From a virus (lineage: Duplodnaviria; Heunggongvirae; Uroviricota; Caudoviricetes), in the IMG/VR virus record IMGVR_UViG_2645728091_000008: DNA of 22,213 nt, one strand, 5' to 3'. Under the pieces are notes generated by a model that saw nothing but the letters and a program-made list of their open reading frames with translations, searched no databases and had not been told where the DNA came from. Shown here piece by piece: positions 1,309-21,793 of this stretch. Each line of letters opens with the position of its first letter. Within the stretch, counting starts at the first letter, position 1. A program made the translations under genes and the position numbers.

Positions 1309-1932
1309 TCAGAATTTATAGCCGACACCCACGATGAAACCGTCAGTGCGCCAGTCGCCACTGCCGGAACCTTCATAAGCAAGGTCAATAACCACCGTCT
1401 CTACGGGACTGAACTGAATCCCGGCATTCCAGGCCGGCGACAGATGACGCGCAGTATGACCATCACTGGCGGTGGTGGTCTCCTTCACATACCCCGGTTT
1501 CACTTCATCACGCCGGTAATCCTGAACACTGTCAGACCAGCGGGTGTACGCCATCCCGGCCATGCCATAGAGACTGACCCGCTCACTGAGCTGCCAGACA
1601 GGGCCGGCCATCAGACTGACATAACGACCGCGCAGGCTTTCATAATGGAAGGTATTTTCACCCGTCTTCATCGTGTCACTTTTCTTCACCGATGCATAAC
1701 TCAGCGCGACAATGCCGCCCAGGTGATCCGTGAACTCATAACGGTATTTCACATTAATCCCTTTTAAATCACCTGCACGCGCACCGGTACCGGACAATGC
1801 CGGTACGCCGCCCGGGTGAACCTGAGCATATCCCACGGAAAATGCACCGTGTCCGTTTTCAGCCTGTGCAGGAAAGGCAATTCCTGCCAGCAGGGTAGTA
1901 AACAATAATATCGTTGCGTATAAATGCCGCAT
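1309..1932 (-). CDS. lom: Ail/Lom-family outer membrane protein (207 aa)
   Basis: ORF 1309..1968; the track start at 1968 is GTG. I prefer ATG 1932 (MRHLYATILLFTTLLAGIAFPAQA signal peptide) with SD AGAGGT 5 nt upstream. Motifs GINVKYRYE, FHYESLRGRYVS and C-terminal AYEGSGSGDWRTDGFIVGVGYKF match recalled lambda Lom. Confidence 0.9.
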   Translation of the reverse strand: MRHLYATILLFTTLLAGIAFPAQAENGHGAFSVGYAQVHPGGVPALSGTGARAGDLKGINVKYRYEFTDHLGGIVALSYASVKKSDTMKTGENTFHYESLRGRYVSLMAGPVWQLSERVSLYGMAGMAYTRWSDSVQDYRRDEVKPGYVKETTTASDGHTARHLSPAWNAGIQFSPVETVVIDLAYEGSGSGDWRTDGFIVGVGYKF

Positions 1933-1954
1933 GATTACCTCTTTGTTTTCAGTC

Positions 1955-1981
1955 AATAAAAAAGGCACCTCCTGAGGTGCC
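1955..1981 (-). terminator. intrinsic terminator between J and lom
   Basis: On the minus strand: GGCACCT / AGGTGCC stem (1981..1964, 4-nt loop) followed by TTTTTTATT (1963..1955). Starts 20 nt after the J stop. Confidence 0.7.
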
Positions 1982-2000: not shown

Positions 2001-5000
2001 TCAGCTGATACTGATCCCTGCCGTGGATTTTTTCATGACCACAACCAGTAAATCACTGATGTACGTTGTCGGCGTCCAGTTGTTCGCACCGGCCGACGAC
2101 ACATTAAACGTCAGGGTGACATGACCCCGCCCTGCCGGCATATCTATCACCGATGAGAACACCCGGCTGACATCCGTTGCCGGTTCATGGAAAATCTCAA
2201 CCCCGTTCTTCAGCACCTGCAGCTTACAGGTGGAATACCAGTACGACTGCTGATTCGGGCTGTTGAAATTCTGGTGTTTCGTCCCGCGAAACAGCACCGG
2301 GGGAATGATAATCTGCCGGTCGAAGCCCTGGTCATCGTAAACTGTGACGGTTACCGTCCCGCTGGCATAACTGTTATTCCGGGGAAAGGCTTTCCCCACC
2401 GTCTTCACCAGGTCGCCTTCAATCTGGTTTGCAGACAGTTTCCCTCTGATGACACAGTTCTCGTTAATGGTGACATTATTGAGCGTGCCGGTATTCGCGG
2501 TAATTGCTCCGCTGATATCCGCGTTCCTGGCTGTCAGCTTCCCTTCCGGCGTCAGGGAAAACGTCGGGGGGTTGCCGGATGACGTGATACTCGCCGCAAA
2601 CAGACGCTTCAGGAACACGTCGTTCATGAACAGCTGATTCCCCTGCGCCACAAATAACGGAGTGCTGTTGCCGCTCTCCGGATTTATCATCGCGATACGG
2701 TCAGCCAGCAGCAGTATGTTGCTCAGTGGCTGGCCATCAGTATCCTCAATCCCTGCACCAATCCCGGCCACATAGGGAATGCCGTCTTTCGTTTTTTGAA
2801 CCTTCAGCATGTACAGCGCAGCCAGGTCATCATTTGTGTCCTTCTGCACGCGCTGTATCTGCTGAATGGTGGCGCTCTGGTCTTCCAGCGTTTTACTGAC
2901 CGTCTGTGTGATTTCATTGCGGGTTTCGGTGATGGTGGTCTTCATCTCCGCCATCTCATCCGCAAGCTGGCTGTTGTCTATCAGCTCCCATAGCCCCTGA
3001 GCCAGATGCAGTTTTCCTATTTTTTCCCGGAAAAATTCCAGATACCCTTCACCATCATTGCTGGGCTGCCCGCTGACTTCCACAAACGCAGATTTCCCCA
3101 CCAGGTTGACGCTGCGCACGTAAAACCAGAAATCCTTCCCGGGCTTAATGTGCGGGCCGGATACACTCCACTGACTGCCGGTCCCCAGATAACGGGCAGA
3201 GGTTTCCACCTGAGATGTGTCTGCGATTTTTGCCTCCGAAAACCAGAACTCAAACTGTACCGTCGGGTCATACACCGCAAGACGCGGGACCGCCGTTATC
3301 TGAAAATACCCCGGCGTCAGTTCAATGGTGGCGGGTTTTGCTGGCGCGTTAATCCGGAAGGTGGTGGTGGCCGGTTCGCCCTGCTGGCCATAACTGTTAA
3401 TTGCCCTGACTGTCAGGGTGTATTCCCCGAGCGGCAGACCACTGAAACGATGCTCTGTATCCGCAGTGATGGCGGTGGTCACCAGACGGCTGTCTTCTCC
3501 GCTTCCGTTGGTCAGGCGCAGACTGAAGCGCACACCCTTCACCACCCGCGGCGTGTCCCATTTCGCCTGTGCCAGATACTGACCGTCAGCCGCGCTCACC
3601 TCCACCGTCAGGTGCTGCACAGCCGGCGGGATGACGCTGTTCAGCGAACCGGACAGTGGCTCAAAGCTGGCCCCGTTATCCACAATGGCTTCTTTTTCCG
3701 GTACGTGCTGCACCGCCGTGATGGCAAAGGTGCCGTCCGTGTTTTCCCGGATGGAGACACAGCGGAACAGGCGACGACGCAGTGACGGCAGGGAGAGTCC
3801 CCATACACCGTATGTCTCCACACCATCAGGCAGGGTGCTGACCTGTATCCGGTCCGGCGCGGGGTGTGCAGTGATGGCCACGCTCACCGGCTTACCGCTG
3901 CCGTTAATCAGGTTCACCGTGGCGGCACCTGTCTCCGGCAGGGTCACCTCACGGTCCAGTGTCAGGGTGCGGCTGGCGGCATCGATGGACAGGATACGTC
4001 CGCCGGTCATGGTCCCGGCATAGTCGTTATCACAGATTTCAATAATGTCACCGGGTGTGTGACGCAGCCCCTGTGACCCGAGCGTGAAATCCACCGTCTG
4101 CGTTTCCAGCAGTCCGGTCTTTATCACCCACAGCCCGGCACGGTGGGCCTGACCGCGACTGGTGCAACCGAACGCATCCATCTTCAGCAGGTTGCGCCCG
4201 TAGCGCAGTATGGCTTCCGGGTCTTCCACCAGTTCCGTGGAGGTCTGCCAGCCGTTCTGCGGGTCGGTGTAATTCACCTCCACCGCCGTGTGGCGGTCCT
4301 TCAGGGCGCTGAAGCTGTAGCGAAACCCCACGCCGTTATCATCCACCACCACATCGCAGTTGGTGTACGGCCACACCACATCCGACGGGCGGTCCTGAAC
4401 GAACGTCAGCGTCTGGCCGTTCCATACCGGCATACAGCGCATCGCCGAGCAGAAATCACTGAGAACGTCCCACGCCTTACGCTGTTGTGACAGGTACGCA
4501 TTAAAGGTCATCCGCGGCTCTGTGCCCCCGAAACCATCCGGGACCGTCTGGTCGCAGTACTGCCCGATGGCATACAGCGCCCACTTGTCAACATCCGCCG
4601 CCACCAGACGTTTTCCCATGCCGTAGCGCGGGTGAGTCAGCATGTCCCACAGGCACCAGGCCGGGTTGTTGCTGTATGCCGGTTTCAGGCTGCCGTCCCA
4701 GATGCCGCTGTACGTGCGTTTTTCCGGGTCATAGTTTGACGGTACCTGGATGATGCGACCGCGGATATGGTAGTTCACCGTCATCTGCTGACCGCCAAAC
4801 TGCTCCGCATCCACCTGCAGCCCCACAATCGCCGTGTTCGGGTAGCACTGTTTCACATCGATGATTTCGGTGTATGACGACCAGAGCGTCTTATTCTGCA
4901 GCTGGTCCGAGGTGCTGTCCGCTGTCTCCCGGACCATCCGGATGTTAAAGGGCCGCTCAGGCAGATTCTCCAGAATCACCGACGCCAGGTACTGTGAGGT

Positions 5001-5477
5001 GGTCTTGCCGTTAATGGTGACATCCTTTTCCGTCACCCAGTTACCGTTACGCTGCAACTGAATCAGCAGTCGGACAGAAGAGGGATTACGGTCGCCCTTT
5101 GAGGTGGTCTCCAACAGTGACTGCACCCCGAAGGTGACCCGCAGGCGGTCAATGTTCGCGGATGTAATGGTGCGCGTTACCGGCTTTGCCTTCGTCACTT
5201 CCACGCCCAGTCCGGTTTCAGCTCCGGAGGACTCAAAGCCTTCCGGTGGTGTCTGCTCCTGCTCCCCGGCGCGCCAGACCGCGGTCACACCGTGTATCAC
5301 AGGATTGCCGTCCGTGTCCGTCAGCGGGGTTTTGTTCACCAGGATACTCTGCAGCCCCTTCACCGGGCCTTCTATCGGTCCCTCACCAATCGCATCAATC
5401 ACACTCATCATCTGCGTGGATTTGAGATTATCCTTCGCCTCTCGAGGCGTGTGCGCCCTGCCGCCACCTTTGCCCAT
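2001..5477 (-). CDS. J: tail tip / host specificity protein J (central tail fibre), 1158 aa
   Basis: ATG at 5477 with SD GAGAGGA upstream. N-terminus [37 protein letters not shown] is near-identical to recalled lambda J, and length is similar to lambda J (1132 aa). Confidence 0.95.
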
Positions 5478-5491
5478 AATGTTCCTCTCAA

Positions 5492-5546
5492 TTGGTATTA
5501 TTAATCGCAGTGATAGGATATTGCACAGCTATTGCGCGATATCATC
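5492..5546 (+). promoter_or_regulatory. candidate promoter region for sodC (AT-rich; weak -35 TTGGTA 5492..5497, -10-like TAGGAT 5514..5519 or TATCAT 5540..5545)
   Basis: AT-rich stretch between the divergently oriented J start and sodC. Hexamers are imperfect and spacing is not ideal, so this is only a region-level call. Confidence 0.25.
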
Positions 5547-5610
5547 AGAACGCTGTTTGTTACCCTGTAACCAGCAAGCTCAGTCTGTTAACGGAATTAA
5601 TGAGGGTTTT

Positions 5611-6138
5611 ATGAAATGTAAAATCATTGCTGCCATTGCCATGCTGACAGCAGCATCATGCGGATACGCAGCAGAACAGGAAGTCCCAATGAACCTTGTC
5701 AGTGCTGACGGAAAAGAAGTCAGCATTGGAAAAATAACCATTCAGGAGACCCCCTACGGTCTGCTGTTCACACCAGCCCTTCACTCTCTGTCTGAAGGCA
5801 TTCATGGTTTTCATGTGCACGAAAAAGGAAATTGCGCCCCGGCACTGAAAGACGGAAAACCGGTCGCAGCATTATCGGCTGGCGGTCACTTTGACCCGAA
5901 AAACACCGGCAAACATCTTGGCCCCTGGTCTCCGGATGGACACCTGGGCGACCTCCCTGCGCTGTTCGTGACGCATGACGGAAAAGCGAACTACCCGGTC
6001 CTGGCCCCGAGACTGAACTCATTAAAAGAGATTAAAGGGCGTTCTCTCATGCTTCATGCTGGCGGTGATAACCATCATGACCATCCGGAGCCCCTGGGCG
6101 GTGGTGGTGCGAGAATGGCCTGCGGCATCATTCAATAA
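5611..6138 (+). CDS. sodC: periplasmic Cu,Zn superoxide dismutase (175 aa), prophage moron
   Basis: ATG 5611 with SD GAGGG 4 nt upstream, TAA at 6136..6138. N-terminal signal peptide [17 protein letters not shown]. Cu/Zn-SOD signatures [33 protein letters not shown] and [14 protein letters not shown]. It is the C-terminal part of track ORF 5104..6138; the upstream extension is antisense to J and rejected. Confidence 0.95.
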
Positions 6139-14639: not shown

Positions 14640-15668
14640 TTATTTCACCTGTACCACCACAAACTCATCCGGGTCCGGCAACACCATCAGCGGCGCGGAC
14701 TGCGTCATGGTAAATTCACGGGCGGGATCCCCTACCGTCAGCCAGTGTTTCGGATAACGGGAAGAGGCCACCACACCTTCGGACAACGCCTGCGCATCCT
14801 GAATGGCACCATAGCAACGAATGCCCTCTGCTGCCGTATTCCCCAGGACCAGCGAACCCTCAGGCAGATAACGTTTTTCGGTACCGTCCTCTGCCACATA
14901 AGACGTTTTTGCCACCACAATGGCCAGATCGCCGTAATACCCTTTGAAGGACACCACCGCGCCCAGGTCTTTCACCGCTGTTTCGAGTTGCGAATTAGAG
15001 CCGCGACGGGTATCCAGTTTTTCGCGGAACAATTTAAAGCCATTCAGCAGACGCCAGACGGTACCGTCCATAATGGCAATATTCACAAGACCGCTGGCCT
15101 GGTCGCAGTAGAGGTCAAGATCATGTGTAGGATCGAACGTGTCACGATCCTGTTTTGACCACTCCTTACCACTACCCTGAGTGATGTTATTCTTCGTCGA
15201 CCTGCCAAAATCGACCTCAATTTTCTCGAACTGGTCTCCTTCCATCGTGTATTTGCCATACAGCACGGCATTCACCGCCTGCATTTCTTCCACCTGGACA
15301 ATGGCGTGCTCTTCCTGTTTGAGGTTATCAGTGATGATACGCAGACGACGGTAGGCCGGGTCGTTCAGCTGAGCCGGATCTTCACCGGGAAGACGCTCAA
15401 CCGCCTGCTGGTAATTAAATTCGTGTTTCGGCTTGACGTAGCCCGGACGTAACACGCGGGTTTCACCACCACGATGACGCAGCACTTTTCCTTCAACAAC
15501 CGGGGAAACATAGGCCGCCACCGGCGTTTTTCCGGTAATTTTGTCCAGCATCACCTCTTCGGTATGGAAATTCACCGTACGGCGGAAAAACAGCTCCAGA
15601 AACAGCGCACGAAATTTCACTTTTTGTTCGGTATAACCGAGTAACTGGCGGGTCGTAAACAATCCCAT
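14640..15668 (-). CDS. E: major capsid protein E (342 aa)
   Basis: ATG 15668 with SD AAGGAA. Long matches to recalled lambda E (GYVKPKHE, QVEEMQAVNAVLYGKYTM, KEKLDTRRGSNS, RYPKHWLTVGDPAREFTMTQSAPLM). Confidence 0.95.
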   Translation of the reverse strand: MGLFTTRQLLGYTEQKVKFRALFLELFFRRTVNFHTEEVMLDKITGKTPVAAYVSPVVEGKVLRHRGGETRVLRPGYVKPKHEFNYQQAVERLPGEDPAQLNDPAYRRLRIITDNLKQEEHAIVQVEEMQAVNAVLYGKYTMEGDQFEKIEVDFGRSTKNNITQGSGKEWSKQDRDTFDPTHDLDLYCDQASGLVNIAIMDGTVWRLLNGFKLFREKLDTRRGSNSQLETAVKDLGAVVSFKGYYGDLAIVVAKTSYVAEDGTEKRYLPEGSLVLGNTAAEGIRCYGAIQDAQALSEGVVASSRYPKHWLTVGDPAREFTMTQSAPLMVLPDPDEFVVVQVK

Positions 15669-15725: not shown

Positions 15726-16073
15726 TTACGGCAGCGCCGCGTGACTCAGGGCACTGCCGGCAAAGGCGTTGGCCTTTTTGTGTTCATCCACACTTTCAGG
15801 CCAGCGGATTGCCTCCGTCGCAAAGGTCCCCGACTTGTAATAGGTCAGCGCCGTCTCTGTGCCTTCAAGCGGCAGTACCAGTATGCCAACCGCACTACCG
15901 GCTTTTTGTCCGTCCCAGACCACCAGTTTCCCGGTGGCCTCATCCAGCATCAGGGGCGTCAGTGCCGGTGTTGCCGAGGAAATCCCGCTGCTGCCTGTGG
16001 CGGTATGAGCCGGATCATTACCGGCAAAAATACGTACTTCCGCACGCTGTTCAGTGATAGTTTTCGTCACCAT
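15726..16073 (-). CDS. D: head decoration protein D (115 aa)
   Basis: ATG 16073 with SD AGGAGG. NDPAHTATG, TPLMLD, AVGIL, YYKSGTF and AFAG match recalled lambda D. Confidence 0.9.
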   Translation of the reverse strand: MVTKTITEQRAEVRIFAGNDPAHTATGSSGISSATPALTPLMLDEATGKLVVWDGQKAGSAVGILVLPLEGTETALTYYKSGTFATEAIRWPESVDEHKKANAFAGSALSHAALP

Positions 16074-16109
16074 ATTGTAAAAACCTCCTGTTGATGGTCA
16101 GCACTGGCT

Positions 16110-17615
16110 TCATGGCATGGCCATGAGCATTTTCACGTCCGCATCACCGTCTGCTGACGTCTGTGGCACGCCACCCTGTACCGCTGCCGGTGAATGGTTC
16201 GCCATGATGCGTTCAAACATGGCGGTTGTGGATGCAGAGACCGGTTCTGCCTTACCTGATCCCGCAGCCAGCACAGCCCGGGCGCTCTCCACAGTCATTC
16301 CCGGGCAGGCAGCCAGCTGTTCAGCCTGCGCCTCAGCCCCTTTTGCCTCATCCAGTGCCATGATCTGATCACGGAGTGAGGGTCCGGCATCCGCCTGCGG
16401 TGAAGCAGCCAGGATCGGGCGGGCTTTTTCCACCGTCATCTCCGGCATCGCCGCCAGCGTTGCCGCCAGTTGTTCACGACCTTTCGCTTCTTCACACGCC
16501 ATAATGCGATCGGCTTCACTCTGCGCGGATGCCACCGGCTGCTGTGGTGCCGCCGCGGCCAGAATCGCCCGGGCCTGTTCAACGCTCATGCCCTGTTGTC
16601 CTGCCAGCATCGTGGCAAGCTGTTCACGTCCTTTCGCTTCCTGGCATGTCAGGATCCCCATCACTCGCTGGTTCTCCTGCGCGGCGGCTTCCGTTGCAGT
16701 TAATTGCGGCATAGTGCCTCCTCTGACATTACTGTTCAGCGCCGTGGCCATCACACTGATGGCATCCGACGCATTGATTAATTCATCCGCCAGCCCGGCC
16801 TCAATGCCGGACTGACCTTCAAAAACGGCGGCCTCTGTTCCCGTGACAGCATCAACAGACAGACCGGTATACATCGCTACTTTTTCAGCAAACATCCGGC
16901 GCGCCGCATCAATGCGCTGTTGCATGTCCTGGCGAACCTCTGCCGGCAACGCTTCAAACTGATTGCCATCCACCTTGTGCGCCCCTGAGTAAATCAGCGT
17001 GATATCAACACCGGCCTGCGCCAGATGACCGGCATAGCTGACATGGCTCATCATCACGCCAATGGAGCCGATACGGGATGTCTGGGTAACCAGCCGTCGG
17101 GAGCAGGCCGACGCCAGCAGCATGGCTGCAGAGCAGGCCGTGTCATTGCACAGTGCCCAGACCGGCTTCTGCTGACGGAGGCGGTAAATCATGTCAGCGC
17201 AGTCAAACGCGCCGGCGGCCTGCCCGCCCGGACTGTCAATGTCCAGCAGTACGCCCCGCACCTGGCTATCCGCCATTGCCTGCTGAAGACAGGCGACAAT
17301 GCCGTCATAGCCTGTCATTCCGGAAAATGGCCGCATACCCCCCAGCCGGTGCACCAGCGTGCCGGTCACCGGCAGTACAGCAATACCGTTCACCACCCGG
17401 TAAACACGGGCCGGTCGTTTACCTCCGGCCATGTACTCGTCCGTTTCAGCCAGCATTCCGGGAGCATCAAACTGTACCTGCTGTTGTGGTACCGAAAGAC
17501 TTGATGCCCCCATCTCGCGCCCGAGCGCGCAAAAGAAAACCCGCGCATAGGCGGGCTCCAGAAGCAGCGGTTCATTGAATGCTGCGGCAATAATGTGTGA
17601 AAGATTACGTCTCAC
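16110..17615 (-). CDS. C: head maturation protease C (S49/SppA-like) with in-frame C-terminal Nu3-type scaffold region (501 aa)
   Basis: Start is GTG at 17615, overlapping the B stop. AFNEPLLLEPAYARVFFCAL, GVLLDIDSPGG and KPVWALCNDTACSAA match recalled lambda C. About 62 aa longer than lambda C (439 aa). Confidence 0.9.
   Translation of the reverse strand: MRRNLSHIIAAAFNEPLLLEPAYARVFFCALGREMGASSLSVPQQQVQFDAPGMLAETDEYMAGGKRPARVYRVVNGIAVLPVTGTLVHRLGGMRPFSGMTGYDGIVACLQQAMADSQVRGVLLDIDSPGGQAAGAFDCADMIYRLRQQKPVWALCNDTACSAAMLLASACSRRLVTQTSRIGSIGVMMSHVSYAGHLAQAGVDITLIYSGAHKVDGNQFEALPAEVRQDMQQRIDAARRMFAEKVAMYTGLSVDAVTGTEAAVFEGQSGIEAGLADELINASDAISVMATALNSNVRGGTMPQLTATEAAAQENQRVMGILTCQEAKGREQLATMLAGQQGMSVEQARAILAAAAPQQPVASAQSEADRIMACEEAKGREQLAATLAAMPEMTVEKARPILAASPQADAGPSLRDQIMALDEAKGAEAQAEQLAACPGMTVESARAVLAAGSGKAEPVSASTTAMFERIMANHSPAAVQGGVPQTSADGDADVKMLMAMP
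16203..16664 (-). repeat. three degenerate tandem copies of a 47-53 codon module inside the 3' part of C
   Basis: Module starts I-[LM]-[TA]-x-x-EAKG at codons whose Met triplets are 16659..16661, 16500..16502 and 16359..16361, with a partial fourth at 16203..16205. Periods are 159, 141 and 156 nt. DNA-level repeat GTTCACG(A/T)CCTTTCGCTTC at approx 16473..16493 and 16622..16642. Confidence 0.65.
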
Positions 17616-19197
17616 GTGGTGTTGTCTCCTCTTCCGGCCTGCGACTCTCCGCTATCTGCTGCTCATACGCCTGCGCTATCCACACCGGACGTGAGAGTCC
17701 GGCTTTTTGTCGCTCAGCAGATTCCCTGACCTGCTGGCGGAAAATGTCCTGATAATCCTCGCCCATCAGCGCCAGCTCTTTCTCATACGTGCTCAGTCCG
17801 GCCTCAATGCGCATCACTGATTCCTGGACTTCCTTGAGCCCGTCAATGGCCATTCTTCCGGCTCCAATCCACTCAGCCCGTGACCAGGCTGATCGCGCCT
17901 GATAAAAATCAAAACGCGCCCGTGGCGGACGAATAATCCCCCGAAGAAGTGCCTCTTCCAGCCAGCAGGAAAACATCTGCGTGGCCAGCCGGGACGCAAT
18001 AAATTTTCGTCGTCCCATAAAATAGCGCCACGACTCATTGGCGGAGGCGCGGGCACTTGAATAACTGACCTTCGAGTAATCCCGGGACAACTGTTCGTAG
18101 GAAACGCCAAGACCGGCGGCGATATACCGCAGCAGCGCCTGTTCAAGCGCCGAAAATCCATTGTCTGAATCCTGCGCAGTCTGCAGTTTCAGATCATCAC
18201 CGGGGAAAAGGTGCGGAATTTTGACACCGCCCAGCGTCACGCTATTCGTGTCATACCAGGTGGAGAACTTATCCAGAATATTAATAAGCGGATTATCCTT
18301 CTGCCCCTGCGGCGCACCGGCGATATATTCAAAGGCCTTTTCGGTATCAAGTTCACTTTCAATCGTCGCTGCATACATGGCTTTCACAATGGCCGACTGA
18401 AGCTGTGTTGCCTGCAGGGAATCCAGCATCTTCAGCCGTTCCATGACGCTGTAAAACTGATTAGCCCCACGGGTCTGCCCGTCCTCCACCGGCTCGAAAA
18501 TATGCAGCATGGCCGGACGCCCGGTGGGTAGTTCACGCGGGATCCGTTCCCATCGTCCACTCCCGGAGAACGGAAAATCATCCTCACAGATATGGTACGC
18601 AACGGCACGGCCATATCGATCGACCTCCACCCCGGCCCGCAGAAAACGGTTCCCCATACCGTGTCCTGGCGTGTCCACCCGTTTCGGACTCACGGCTTTA
18701 AAACGCGTACGAAACAGTTGCGTGCTCTCCGTATCCCAGACCGGCTGCACAAAGATTTCGCCGTTAAACGCATGAACGCCCACACCTTCACGGATAAATT
18801 CCGTAAACGTGCGTTTCCCTTCCACGTCGATCTCGCCAGACATCCCTTCGGCGTATTCCGACCAGGCCGCCTCCACCTCATCGACAAAACTTTTTGCTGC
18901 AGTCTCCCGCATCCCCAGCCAGCGCCAGTTCGGACGGTAGCTGATCAGAAACATATGCCCGACAATATGATCCTTATGCAGTGCCACCGCATTGGCCGCT
19001 ATCCCGTTATTGCGCACCAGATCATCTGCCCGGGCATTGCCCAGACGCAACGCGGGCAACAGGGCCGCATCGGCACTCTGCGCCGGTGGCAACCACTCCG
19101 CCATTTGCCCGCCAAATCCTGCACCGCCCCCGTTGTAGCTGAGGCTCTCCCGAAGCGGAACACCGTTCACATCAATCAGGACAGGCGTTCGTTTCAT
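17605..19197 (-). CDS. B: portal protein B (530 aa)
   Basis: ATG 19197. GNARADDLVRNNG, EPVEDGQTRGAN, LQSAIVKAMYAATIESELDT, LRYIAAGLGVSYEQLSR and GRMAIDGLKEVQE match recalled lambda B. Confidence 0.95.
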   Translation of the reverse strand: MKRTPVLIDVNGVPLRESLSYNGGGAGFGGQMAEWLPPAQSADAALLPALRLGNARADDLVRNNGIAANAVALHKDHIVGHMFLISYRPNWRWLGMRETAAKSFVDEVEAAWSEYAEGMSGEIDVEGKRTFTEFIREGVGVHAFNGEIFVQPVWDTESTQLFRTRFKAVSPKRVDTPGHGMGNRFLRAGVEVDRYGRAVAYHICEDDFPFSGSGRWERIPRELPTGRPAMLHIFEPVEDGQTRGANQFYSVMERLKMLDSLQATQLQSAIVKAMYAATIESELDTEKAFEYIAGAPQGQKDNPLINILDKFSTWYDTNSVTLGGVKIPHLFPGDDLKLQTAQDSDNGFSALEQALLRYIAAGLGVSYEQLSRDYSKVSYSSARASANESWRYFMGRRKFIASRLATQMFSCWLEEALLRGIIRPPRARFDFYQARSAWSRAEWIGAGRMAIDGLKEVQESVMRIEAGLSTYEKELALMGEDYQDIFRQQVRESAERQKAGLSRPVWIAQAYEQQIAESRRPEEETTPRET

Positions 19198-19400: not shown

Positions 19401-21312
19401 TCACTCCTCCGGACAGCTTCGCTGCCAGTTCTTTCAGGGTTGGCCGGGTCGTCTCTTCTTCCCGGGATTTTGCCAGTACAGCCAGATCAAGCTGCCAGCG
19501 TTGCACGGACACACGTAATGCCGCGTAGGCATACACCAGGCAGTCCAGCGCTTCGTTACGCCGCTTTTTGTTATCCCACAGCAGACGCATCTTTCCTTTT
19601 TCCCACTTCTCCACCAGCTCTTCCGCCACCAGTTGCTGCGCCTCTGTCTGCGAAAAAATCTCCGGATCATCAGGAAAACGGATGGCATACGACGTGGCTT
19701 CATCCGCAGGCGAGGGATCGGCTTTCATACGGGCATAGAGAATTTCTTTTGCGGTGTCCGTTCCCACTTCACACAGATACACGCCCCGCTGATTGCGGGT
19801 TTTTGGCATGGTGATCACCGGCTTGCCATAGACAGATGCGCCTTTTACCGGCAGCACCCGGAAAACACCGTGTTTTTTTGATCTCTGATAAACAATTTCA
19901 CCATCGATCCCCCCGGTGTCCCAGCAGACACGGGAAATAGTCATTTCGGTGCCATCCGCATGGCGGTATTTTTTGTTGATCGCCGCATCCACACGTAACA
20001 GCGTCTCTTCCTCATCAGGACGCCCCATAATGATGATTTTATCCACCAGAAAGGCTTCCTCTCCCGGAGCCCATCCCCAGACATACATCTCAAAACGGTT
20101 TCGCTGCGAGTCAATGCCCGCCGTCAGATAAACCACCCGGGCAGGTACCGCCGCCGTGTAACGCACCACCTTATCCATCAGTACCTGGTGATCGAGTTTT
20201 TCGCCCACGGCTTCTTCCCAGGTCTCGCCCAGCGTGGTGTTCACAAAGGTTTTCAGGCCGTTGGGATCTTTCAGTGCATCCAGCCAGTCATAGACTATCT
20301 GTACCCAGGTGGTAAACGGACTGTACGCCGTCCAGATATGGAACGTGATGGAGCGCGGCGGCGGAATTTCATCACCCCGGGCGCTGAAAAACGTCAGACC
20401 GTCACGGGTCCACATGCCCGTGTTTTCACAGATCCACCGCCCGTTGCTCTGGTCCAGTTCAGACTGATGGATCACGCAGCCATGATGTTCACAGAGGTAG
20501 AAAACACTTTCGGGGCTGTCCTTCTCCCATTTAAGCCCAAAAGGCGTGGACTCATCGCCAAATTTCAGATACTGCGCCTCCCCACAGTGCGGGCAGGGCA
20601 CATAAAAACGCATAAAATGCGCCGACTCGTTAGCGGCTTTTTCGATCTGGCAGGTGCCTTTGATTTTAGGCGTCGAGCCGCGAATGGATTTTGGCCACAC
20701 CGACCCCTCAATACGCTTATCCCCCAGCAGGGTTGGCGAGCCCTCTTTTTCGACATCCGGCTCGAACGAGGAAAGTTCGTCATAGCAGACCACGTCCACG
20801 GATTTTTCACGGTAGTTTTTGGCGGCAGCGCCGCCCAGGCACCAGAAACCGACGCCCGATGAAAAGCGTTTCAGCGTGAGAGTATTGTCACGATGTTTAC
20901 GACCCAGCCATGGGGAAAGGTCTTTCAGGCATGGCACGTTCCGAATCGTCGCCTCCACGTGAGACTTCATAAAATCTTCAGCGGCAGAATCCGTGGGCTG
21001 AAAAAGCAGACTGTTTCGGGATTTATGCTCAATAAAATACCCGCCCACCCCCAGCAACATCTTTGTATAGCCAACACGGGCAGATTTAATCAGGTTAACC
21101 GTGCGAACCTGGTCGTTACCCATACAGTTCATAATGGCGATCTGGAATGGCAGCGTTTTCCATTCTCCCTCACCATATGAAGATTCTTTAGGCAGATAAT
21201 AATTTTGATCAGCCCATTCAACTGCCGTCATTGGTACAACCCTGACCAGAGGCTGCAGCGCAACCGAAACGGCAGCCATCATATTATTCAGTTGTTGCTC
21301 TGATATATTCAT
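19384..21312 (-). CDS. A: terminase large subunit A (642 aa)
   Basis: Track start 21369 is TTG. ATG 21312 gives MNISEQQ..., aligning with the lambda A start MNIS. TAVEWAD.NYYLPKES, KNYREKSVDV, DKRIEGSVWPKSIRGSTPK, FVNTTLGETWE and KKRRNEALDC match. Overlaps nu1 by 29 nt as in lambda. Confidence 0.95.
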   Translation of the reverse strand: MNISEQQLNNMMAAVSVALQPLVRVVPMTAVEWADQNYYLPKESSYGEGEWKTLPFQIAIMNCMGNDQVRTVNLIKSARVGYTKMLLGVGGYFIEHKSRNSLLFQPTDSAAEDFMKSHVEATIRNVPCLKDLSPWLGRKHRDNTLTLKRFSSGVGFWCLGGAAAKNYREKSVDVVCYDELSSFEPDVEKEGSPTLLGDKRIEGSVWPKSIRGSTPKIKGTCQIEKAANESAHFMRFYVPCPHCGEAQYLKFGDESTPFGLKWEKDSPESVFYLCEHHGCVIHQSELDQSNGRWICENTGMWTRDGLTFFSARGDEIPPPRSITFHIWTAYSPFTTWVQIVYDWLDALKDPNGLKTFVNTTLGETWEEAVGEKLDHQVLMDKVVRYTAAVPARVVYLTAGIDSQRNRFEMYVWGWAPGEEAFLVDKIIIMGRPDEEETLLRVDAAINKKYRHADGTEMTISRVCWDTGGIDGEIVYQRSKKHGVFRVLPVKGASVYGKPVITMPKTRNQRGVYLCEVGTDTAKEILYARMKADPSPADEATSYAIRFPDDPEIFSQTEAQQLVAEELVEKWEKGKMRLLWDNKKRRNEALDCLVYAYAALRVSVQRWQLDLAVLAKSREEETTRPTLKELAAKLSGGVNGYSR

Positions 21313-21793
21313 CGAGTAAATCCGGTAATTTATCCCCTGCCCGCGCACACTGATTTGCCCCCTTAGCAATAAGGGTTTTCAGATGGTCAAGATGGCGCGG
21401 TGTTAAATCAGGAAACTGTCGCTGCATGGATAAAGGGATGGAATCAAGCGTACTGGATAACGCCATTGCCAGCTTACTGAGGGCAAAAATACAGAACCCG
21501 GTGTCAATAAGTTTTCCTTTTGACACCTCATTTTTTAACTGCTGTGTAACAGCCTGTTCTGCTGTCAGTTCCCATCTGGCAATAAGCAATTTCTCCTCAT
21601 AGTCGTCTTCGCTATCGCCATCAGGCACATCGTTTTTACTTCTCCTCAGATACGATATGTAAAAATCGCGCCAGGCATCCAGATCCAGTTGCCCTCGCTT
21701 ATTCGATATCGGGGCACCCGGCAATTTCTGCAATCTGCGAAGCTGGTGATCGGTCAGACTTAAATGCCTGGCAACTTCAGTCTGCGTAGCCAC
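21284..21793 (-). CDS. nu1: terminase small subunit Nu1 (169 aa)
   Basis: Start codon is GTG (21793..21791) preceded by GAGGTGAGGA, immediately after an in-frame stop. C-terminal half (CIFALSKLA...IPLSMQRQFPDL..RH.D.LK..I...LLDEYI) matches recalled lambda Nu1; the N-terminal DNA-binding part is divergent. Confidence 0.85.
   Translation of the reverse strand: MATQTEVARHLSLTDHQLRRLQKLPGAPISNKRGQLDLDAWRDFYISYLRRSKNDVPDGDSEDDYEEKLLIARWELTAEQAVTQQLKNEVSKGKLIDTGFCIFALSKLAMALSSTLDSIPLSMQRQFPDLTPRHLDHLKTLIAKGANQCARAGDKLPDLLDEYIRATTE

Follow-up and report, generated by a model that had tools for sequence, protein, structure and literature searches.

Three tandem modules in the scaffold region of a phage-21-type C/Nu3 gene

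In lambda, the head proteins C and Nu3 have their C-terminal region in common; Nu3 serves as the internal scaffold, and C, the prohead protease, enters together with Nu3 and later removes it. For phage 21, the corresponding genes are on record in M81255 ('Bacteriophage 21 head gene operon'), which annotates gene 5 (501 amino acids, aa) and nested gene 6 (200 aa, with a putative ribosome binding site), and which places three repeat_region features in gene 6, 'Tri1 box', 'Tri box' and 'Tri3 box', with the note 'function unknown; putative'. The paper behind this record is presumably Smith & Feiss (Gene, 1993). Here we compare with both phages a gene C homologue from a 22,213-nucleotide (nt) stretch of DNA of a Caudoviricetes virus (IMG/VR record IMGVR_UViG_2645728091_000008), the whole of which is referred to below as the window. 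The gene occupies 16110..17615 on the minus strand (501 aa, prohead protease plus scaffold, GTG start, stop codon at 16110..16112), and its scaffold part carries three tandem, diverged copies of a protein module. This triplication is already known, having been annotated in phage 21 in the early 1990s, and is a real but ordinary feature of E. coli prophages. The genome announcement for phage 21 is silent on the repeats, and text searches of the literature on Nu3 together with phage 21, repeat or triplication returned nothing relevant, the original M81255 paper lying outside their coverage.

The gene compared with phage 21 and lambda

We refer to the three modules, from the N-terminal side, as R1, R2 and R3; their cores lie at aa 318-359 (16539..16664), aa 371-409 (16389..16505) and aa 418-456 (16248..16364), all on the minus strand. 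The phage 21 boxes fall on these cores. Tri1 box (M81255 5542-5645) corresponds to window 16542-16645, the core of R1; Tri box (5682-5792) to 16395-16505, the core of R2; and Tri3 box (5823-5936) to 16251-16364, the core of R3, such that the window holds three in-frame repeats of 104-114 nt in its gene 6 homologue at the positions annotated for phage 21. The 501-aa open reading frame (ORF) as a whole is 98.7% identical in nucleotide sequence to phage 21 gene 5 (M81255.1 and OL657228.1) over the full 1506 nt and without gaps (megablast against phage records), and this identity over the full length extends to several phage-21-like phages. Phage 21 (M81255; complete genome, OL657228) agrees with the window in the gene itself, in its length (1506 nt, 501 aa) and in the internal ribosome binding site and ATG of gene 6, and differs by a few substitutions only, among them K328N in R2 and, in the tail, 'ERI' versus 'EHF'. 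The window is a prophage copy, 100% identical to several E. coli chromosomes. OL657228.1 also annotates, inside the scaffold region, two 'CII binding site' matches to the pattern TTGYN6TTGY (2409..2422 and 2643..2656), at approximately 16694..16707 and 16460..16473 of the window. One of the two falls within R2, and both look as if they had been annotated on the pattern alone.

The N-terminal part of the protein is an S49 (SppA-like) protease domain (aa 77-293, 16737..17387, minus strand), delimited by Pfam and by SppA structures. Peptidase_S49 (PF01343) matches aa 146-293 (E 3.7e-35), and aa 77-290 align with the Bacillus SppA structures 3rst and 4kwb (E 4e-16). In this alignment Ser162 pairs with the AAS*GG serine of Bacillus SppA; it is invariant in the window, phage 21 and lambda, and we take it to be the putative protease nucleophile. 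The gene also matches phrog_53, head maturation protease (E 2e-228), and the order portal, C, D, E places it in the head operon where gpC/gpNu3-type genes of lambda stand.

The C-terminal part contains, in frame with C, a nested Nu3-type scaffold ORF of 200 aa (16110..16712, minus strand), the homologue of phage 21 gene 6. A Shine-Dalgarno (SD) sequence read from the DNA, GAGGAGG at 16717..16723 on the minus strand, precedes the internal in-frame ATG (Met302) by 4 nt, and this site is the annotated putative ribosome binding site of gene 6 in M81255 and OL657228. The nested ORF is annotated as a coding sequence in the phage 21 records, and it matches phrog_8399, head scaffolding protein, and phrog_8940, capsid assembly protein, in three stretches each. 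Judged from this initiation site, the C-terminal 200 aa can probably be translated separately from the protease. Plus-strand ORFs over the region, such as 16117..16368 and 16504..16815, run antisense to a gene that is strongly conserved and under purifying selection, and nothing favours them. The identity of the gene as a phage-21-type C/Nu3 gene, and the anatomy just described, can be regarded as close to certain.

For lambda, the comparison was made with the retrieved record NC_001416 (C at 4418..5737, with nested nu3). Lambda C (439 aa) resembles the window protein in its S49 domain, in a scaffold region nested in the same frame and in its place between portal B and D/E; the two proteins are 58% identical, and lambda's module and tail are of the same type. 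The alignment bears out what the preliminary description of the window had supposed, namely that lambda C carries exactly one such module, ILNCEEAHGREEQARVLAETPGMTVKTARRILAAAPQ, against three here. That description went on to explain the extra length of this C, about 62 aa, by the additional modules, and this is right only in part. Two module-plus-linker units (~100 aa) have indeed been gained, but lambda C has an extra linker of ~36 aa upstream of its module, rich in Ser, Thr, Ala and Asp, which the window protein lacks, and the difference of +62 aa is the net of the two.

The same alignment bears on where the nested gene of lambda begins. RefSeq starts lambda nu3 at Met239 (201 aa; 2333..2938 in the extracted lambda stretch, L003), and the 20 nt before that codon show no obvious SD. 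The start of phage 21 gene 6 (Met302, with its GAGGAGG) aligns exactly with Met309 of lambda, a codon that is itself preceded by AGGAGG. By alignment, then, the lambda and phage 21 annotations of the nested gene begin at non-homologous positions.

Three diverged modules and their copy number

Local BLOSUM62 scores between the modules are 90-106, compared with a shuffle mean of 26-28 (standard deviation ~5), giving z of 11.6-15.3, and none of 500 shuffles reached the observed score. Against a module profile the three copies score 57-69 bits each, and lambda's single copy 59 bits. The module consensus, I-[LM]-x-x-x-E-A-K-G-R-E-x-L-A-x-x-L-A-x-x-P-G-M-T-x-x-x-A-x-x-x-L, followed by a tail of ~45 aa, is present in the window protein. 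Taken as units, R1 with its linker spans aa 318-370 (16506..16664; VMGILTCQEAKGREQLATMLAGQQGMSVEQARAILAAAAPQQ...), R2 with its linker aa 371-417 (16365..16505; IMACEEAKGREQLAATLAAMPEMTVEKARPILAASPQ...) and R3 aa 418-469 (16209..16364; IMALDEAKGAEAQAEQLAACPGMTVESARAVLAAGSGK...), all on the minus strand. The preliminary description, in which three consecutive degenerate copies of 53, 47 and 52 codons occupied 16203..16664, was therefore sound, the z values being high and the coordinates in agreement; it also placed them correctly in the Nu3/scaffold part of a head protease gene C, as the S49 domain, the nested scaffold ORF and the lambda alignment show.

The partial fourth copy that had been proposed to follow R3 did not survive. 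The stretch from aa 470 onward has no significant similarity to any module (z -0.3 to 1.3) and has only an xRIM motif in common with them, and it aligns with the tail behind lambda's single module (FERIMANHSP...MAMP here, LDRLMQGAP...NTPV in lambda). It is thus part of a conserved C-terminal tail (aa 457-501, 16113..16247, minus strand), which includes the FERIM motif and is homologous to the lambda tail, rather than a repeat unit. Among single-module full-length relatives the tail behind the module has a median length of 48 aa, and its sequence is lineage-specific. No Pfam family exists for the module, and NCBIfam gave no match to the Nu3 part. One Pfam hit on R3, to HhH (E 0.093, 13 bits against a cut-off of 24), is sub-threshold and was rejected as a compositional or short-helix resemblance.

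Structure prediction, which the preliminary description had proposed for the repeat along with a survey of copy number, points to small helical units, about 39 aa each, on short linkers. AlphaFold2 modelled the 200-aa Nu3 part (16-sequence alignment) as beads on a string, with a mean predicted local distance difference test score (pLDDT) of 66.7 and a predicted template modelling score (pTM) of 0.27. Block means over 10 residues were ~72-81 in the modules, ~59-63 in the two linkers and below 50 in the region after R3. Linker 1 (aa 360-370, 16506..16538, minus strand), which is poorly conserved, drops below 50 at Nu3 residues 58-63, and linker 2 (aa 410-417, 16365..16388, minus strand), placed by alignment, is a lower-confidence stretch between helices with a block mean of 63. 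Each module appears in this model as a short helix and then a helix-loop-helix. When aa 305-361 were modelled separately (57 aa, R1 plus N-terminal helix, 62-sequence alignment), pLDDT rose to 93.5 and pTM to 0.76, with helices at positions 3-18, 27-34 and 41-50 of the segment. R1, together with the long helix that precedes it (aa ~307-322), is confidently predicted to form a three-helix mini-domain; R2 and R3 are predicted, less confidently, as a short helix followed by helix-loop-helix. A Foldseek search of the PDB with the full Nu3 model, whose pTM is low, gave no meaningful match. Three-helix modules of bacterial surface proteins (staphylococcal protein A and the affibody, the GA albumin-binding module, Embp/Ebh repeats) resemble the module in fold only: the scores are what any small three-helix bundle would give, 6-17% of the sequence is identical, and the proteins, whose biology is unrelated, are not proposed as homologues.

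The triplication is old. The best same-position matches of R1 are 82% identical (Salmonella R1) and 79% (Trabulsiella R1), compared with 63% for its best match within the window protein; R2 is 70% identical to Salmonella R2 and at best 63% to another module of the window; and R3 is 60% identical to Trabulsiella R3 and 57% to Salmonella R3, with a best match of 55% at home. In all three, same-position identity across genera exceeds identity to neighbours in one protein. R1 is the window module nearest to the single lambda module (61%). Selection has acted on all three. Compared with a diverged E. coli copy (L005), the window differs in its modules by 29 synonymous and 6 non-synonymous changes, and the ratio of the proportions of non-synonymous and synonymous differences (pN/pS) rises from 0.07 in the modules to 0.13 in the protease domain and 0.23 in the linkers. 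In the 16-sequence Nu3 alignment, nearly all invariant columns fall in the modules or in the N-terminal helix ahead of R1, and the linkers vary in sequence and length. The three copies are individually maintained: in prophages of Escherichia, Shigella, Salmonella, Trabulsiella and Providencia, purifying selection has held each of them in its position. The triplication arose by an old duplication at the protein level, the module being single in most relatives, lambda included.

How common the module is was assessed with a 39-position profile built from 20 modules and searched against 1.84 billion cluster representatives (E <= 1e-3). It matched 956 proteins (clusters at 50% identity). The best 150 of these have one module in 137 cases, two in 10 and three in 3; since this holds despite a ranking that favours multi-copy proteins, a single copy is clearly the norm. 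The module typically sits ~48 aa from the C-terminus of S49 proteins of 380-550 aa, or in stand-alone proteins of 100-200 aa. By host, taken from GTDB species genomes, three modules occur in Escherichia, Shigella, E. albertii, Trabulsiella and Providencia, two in a Buttiauxella prophage, and one in Vibrio, Caulobacter, Rhizobium, Paracoccus, Hoeflea, Leptospira, Bryobacter, Desulfarculus and others; the Salmonella three-module proteins were found by protein search.

Within E. coli the number of modules hardly changes. The 603-nt three-module region is present in 1870 of 5426 complete E. coli genomes (34%), with 2922 places matched in total, and at least 80% of it lies in one place in 1865 of the 1870 carriers. 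All 80 loci kept from a scan of IMG/VR span the full 600 nt; these are 98-100% identical three-copy versions and add no diversity. A separate, more diverged lineage with four modules (P0028/L033) is found in 106 complete E. coli genomes and is length-stable; one example is at L033 1..1043, on a contig of E. coli GCA_032727965.1. Its R2-R4 are 80-85% identical to each other, which suggests that this amplification is more recent or has been homogenised. There are also rare in-frame variants, in which R2 is lost or truncated: a 19-aa deletion inside R2 between two 'LA' dipeptides (L004; E. coli 98198, NZ_CP173570.1, 298..1746), an exact R1/R2 fusion (P0020) and linker-to-linker R2 deletions (P0015 and P0021). 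The survey of relatives thus finds three modules in the phage-21 type, one in most others and four in the second E. coli lineage; module number differs between lineages (1, 2, 3, 4) and changes occasionally, and the locus is no hot spot.

The modules had also been described as direct repeats at DNA level and, as such, substrates for copy-number change by recombination. The first statement holds weakly. A repeat search at DNA level finds only patches of 12-17 nt, at a spacing of ~141-156 nt, the core modules in register are 56-63% identical, and Tandem Repeats Finder, run on 15900..17700 with a minimum score of 30, returned no rows. Third codon positions shared between modules number 15-16 of 39 (38-41%), which is near saturation and places the conservation between modules in the protein. 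Efficient RecA or Red recombination needs ~20-30 bp of exact homology. The longest exact run shared within the whole Nu3 region is 11 nt, GAAGCGAAAGG, and with this and the low overall identity the modules are poor substrates for homologous recombination. The second statement is therefore not supported, all the more so given that copy number is almost invariant in the 1870 E. coli genomes and 80 IMG/VR loci. Neither mark of a recombinogenic tandem repeat is seen here, be it high nucleotide identity with long exact matches or frequent copy-number polymorphism among close relatives.

A possible role in head assembly

We read the locus as a phage-21-type nested protease-scaffold gene of the lambda C/Nu3 kind with repeated scaffold interaction modules, a reading to which, as a whole, we assign a probability of roughly 60%. 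The modules are probably interaction units of the internal scaffold; that their specific partner is the capsid shell is a more tentative proposal, to which we give somewhat less than an even chance. In this model, the modules would hold the internal scaffold and its fused protease in place within the prohead as it assembles. The likeliest partner would be the inner face of a shell of the gpE type, here the product of the E-like major capsid gene (14640..15668; 342 aa, Phage_cap_E, PF03864; 61% identical to lambda E), with other scaffold molecules or the portal (17605..19197; 530 aa, 62% identical to the lambda portal, its gene overlapping the start of C) as alternatives. Three modules on flexible linkers would make the 21-type scaffold trivalent, where that of lambda would be monovalent. 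The S49 protease would then degrade the scaffold after assembly, as is established for lambda C/Nu3. Protein E is 341-342 aa long in one-, three- and four-module types, with 84% identity between the three- and four-module types, and module number tracks neither the family nor the length of the capsid protein.

The proposal draws on what is known of other scaffolds. Lambda Nu3 contacts E, C, B and itself, according to two-hybrid and older data (PMC3224144); the two-hybrid results for Nu3 with E are not mapped to the module. In P22, SPP1, phi29, 80alpha and herpesviruses, small helical elements of the scaffold, C-terminal helices or helix-turn-helix elements among them, bind the coat protein (PMC11565965). 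Like the modules described here, these are small helical parts of proteins that are otherwise flexible or disordered (PMC11565965), and it is this functional analogy that lies behind our suggestion. The likeness goes no further: we found no sequence similarity or significant structural similarity between those elements and the modules, and the window protein has no helix-turn-helix at its extreme C-terminus similar to the C-terminal domain of P22 gp8. Unlike the known elements, the modules are predicted three-helix units in tandem, located 45-180 aa from the C-terminus, and their coat binding is putative.

Several observations weigh against the proposed role. The only description of the Tri boxes in M81255 is the 'function unknown; putative' quoted above, and the PDB sequence search with the module profile returned chance matches only (E >= 0.13), so that no solved structure holds the module. 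(Among the short matches, the 10-residue AKGREALAEK in 9hqv chain Un, part of an entry for a Toxoplasma mitoribosome, was rejected as chance.) In P22, herpesvirus and 80alpha scaffolds the coat-binding elements occupy the extreme C-terminus, whereas the module lies further in; coat binding could here fall to the lineage-specific tail. Lambda gets by on a single module with a capsid protein that is equally long and 61% identical, and natural in-frame R2 deletions exist, so trivalency is not obviously required. The title of Medina et al. 2011 reportedly calls lambda gpNu3 intrinsically disordered, and the predicted fold may form only on binding. Protein E is 341-342 aa long in one-, three- and four-module types, with 84% identity between the three- and four-module types, and module number tracks neither the family nor the length of the capsid protein.

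In a second account, the modules are oligomerisation or portal-recruitment units and the lineage-specific tail binds the capsid protein. Tandem copies would then link scaffold molecules to one another, or anchor scaffold and protease at the portal. Conservation across distant hosts, from Leptospira, Caulobacter and Vibrio to E. coli, is much higher in the module than in the tail, and a conserved module next to a tail that varies by lineage fits a conserved partner or self-association. Lambda Nu3 not only interacts with itself but is required for portal incorporation (PMC3224144), and in other phages it is the extreme C-terminus that serves as the coat-binding element (PMC11565965). The argument from conservation does not discriminate between partners, however, because these loci conserve the portal as well as the E family (PF03864). 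We consider this account rather unlikely, although the tail is a serious alternative candidate for the coat-binding element.

It is improbable, in our view, that the extra copies are a tolerated, redundant duplication in which one module suffices and R2 and R3 persist mainly by descent. Such an explanation would suit the single copy of most relatives (137 of the best 150 representatives), the natural variants without all or part of R2 (L004, P0015, P0020 and P0021) and the very similar capsid protein of the two- and four-module lineages (84% identical for the four-module type). It sits poorly with the conservation of each copy in its own position across genera, with a module pN/pS as low as or below that of the protease domain, and with the near-constant presence of the region, whether in E. 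coli carriers (1865 of 1870) or in the IMG/VR loci (80 of 80). The idea that the feature works at the DNA level, as a recombinogenic tandem repeat with frequent copy-number change or as a cis-acting site, can be set aside as most improbable: the regularly recurring short patches, the exact R1/R2 fusion of P0020 (as expected of unequal crossing-over) and the high identity of R2-R4 in the four-module lineage, suggesting more recent amplification, lean towards it, but the empty Tandem Repeats Finder result, the low identity with its 11-nt longest match, the third codon positions and a copy number essentially fixed inside each lineage all lean the other way.

Neighbouring genes and wider meaning

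The whole window is a late operon of the lambda/phage-21 type on the minus strand, from Nu1 through J and lom. Between C and the capsid gene lies a D-like head-decoration gene (15726..16073; 115 aa, HDPD, PF02924). At the upstream end, the ORF for a Nu1-type small terminase (21284..21793, minus strand) matches Pfam Nu1 only at profile positions 62-163, its N-terminal ~48 residues falling outside. Phage 21 terminase differs from that of lambda in cos-binding specificity, which might explain the partial match. Downstream of J, as in lambda, is a gene for an Ail/Lom-family outer-membrane protein (1309..1968, minus strand; PF06316, E 6e-51). Between the tail genes of the I/K region and J (2001..5477, minus strand), an ORF on the opposite strand to the late operon (5104..6138, plus strand) has a Cu/Zn superoxide dismutase domain in its C-terminal 135 aa (PF00080, E 2e-31). 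It looks like a prophage sodC cargo gene, whose true start is probably internal to the 344-aa GTG ORF.

The practical value of the triplication is limited, the repeat having been on record since the early 1990s and being carried by about a third of complete E. coli genomes, and no new kind of system is described here. What our comparison adds is that the module is widespread and single in most phages, that the triplication is ancient and conserved position by position, and that natural forms with one to four modules exist. Together, these additions make an old annotation of 'function unknown' open to experiment as a question of scaffold valency in lambda-type head assembly. More speculatively, and with the odds against it, module number (one in lambda, two in Buttiauxella, three in the phage 21 type, four in the second E. 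coli lineage) might set the valency of scaffold and protease, tuned stepwise while capsid size and family stay unchanged, and the module might represent a previously undescribed, very widespread (956 clusters) scaffold interaction domain without a Pfam family. If the idea is correct, lambda, the 21-type phages and the four-module phages would form a natural series in which scaffold valency could be set against assembly fidelity and protease loading.

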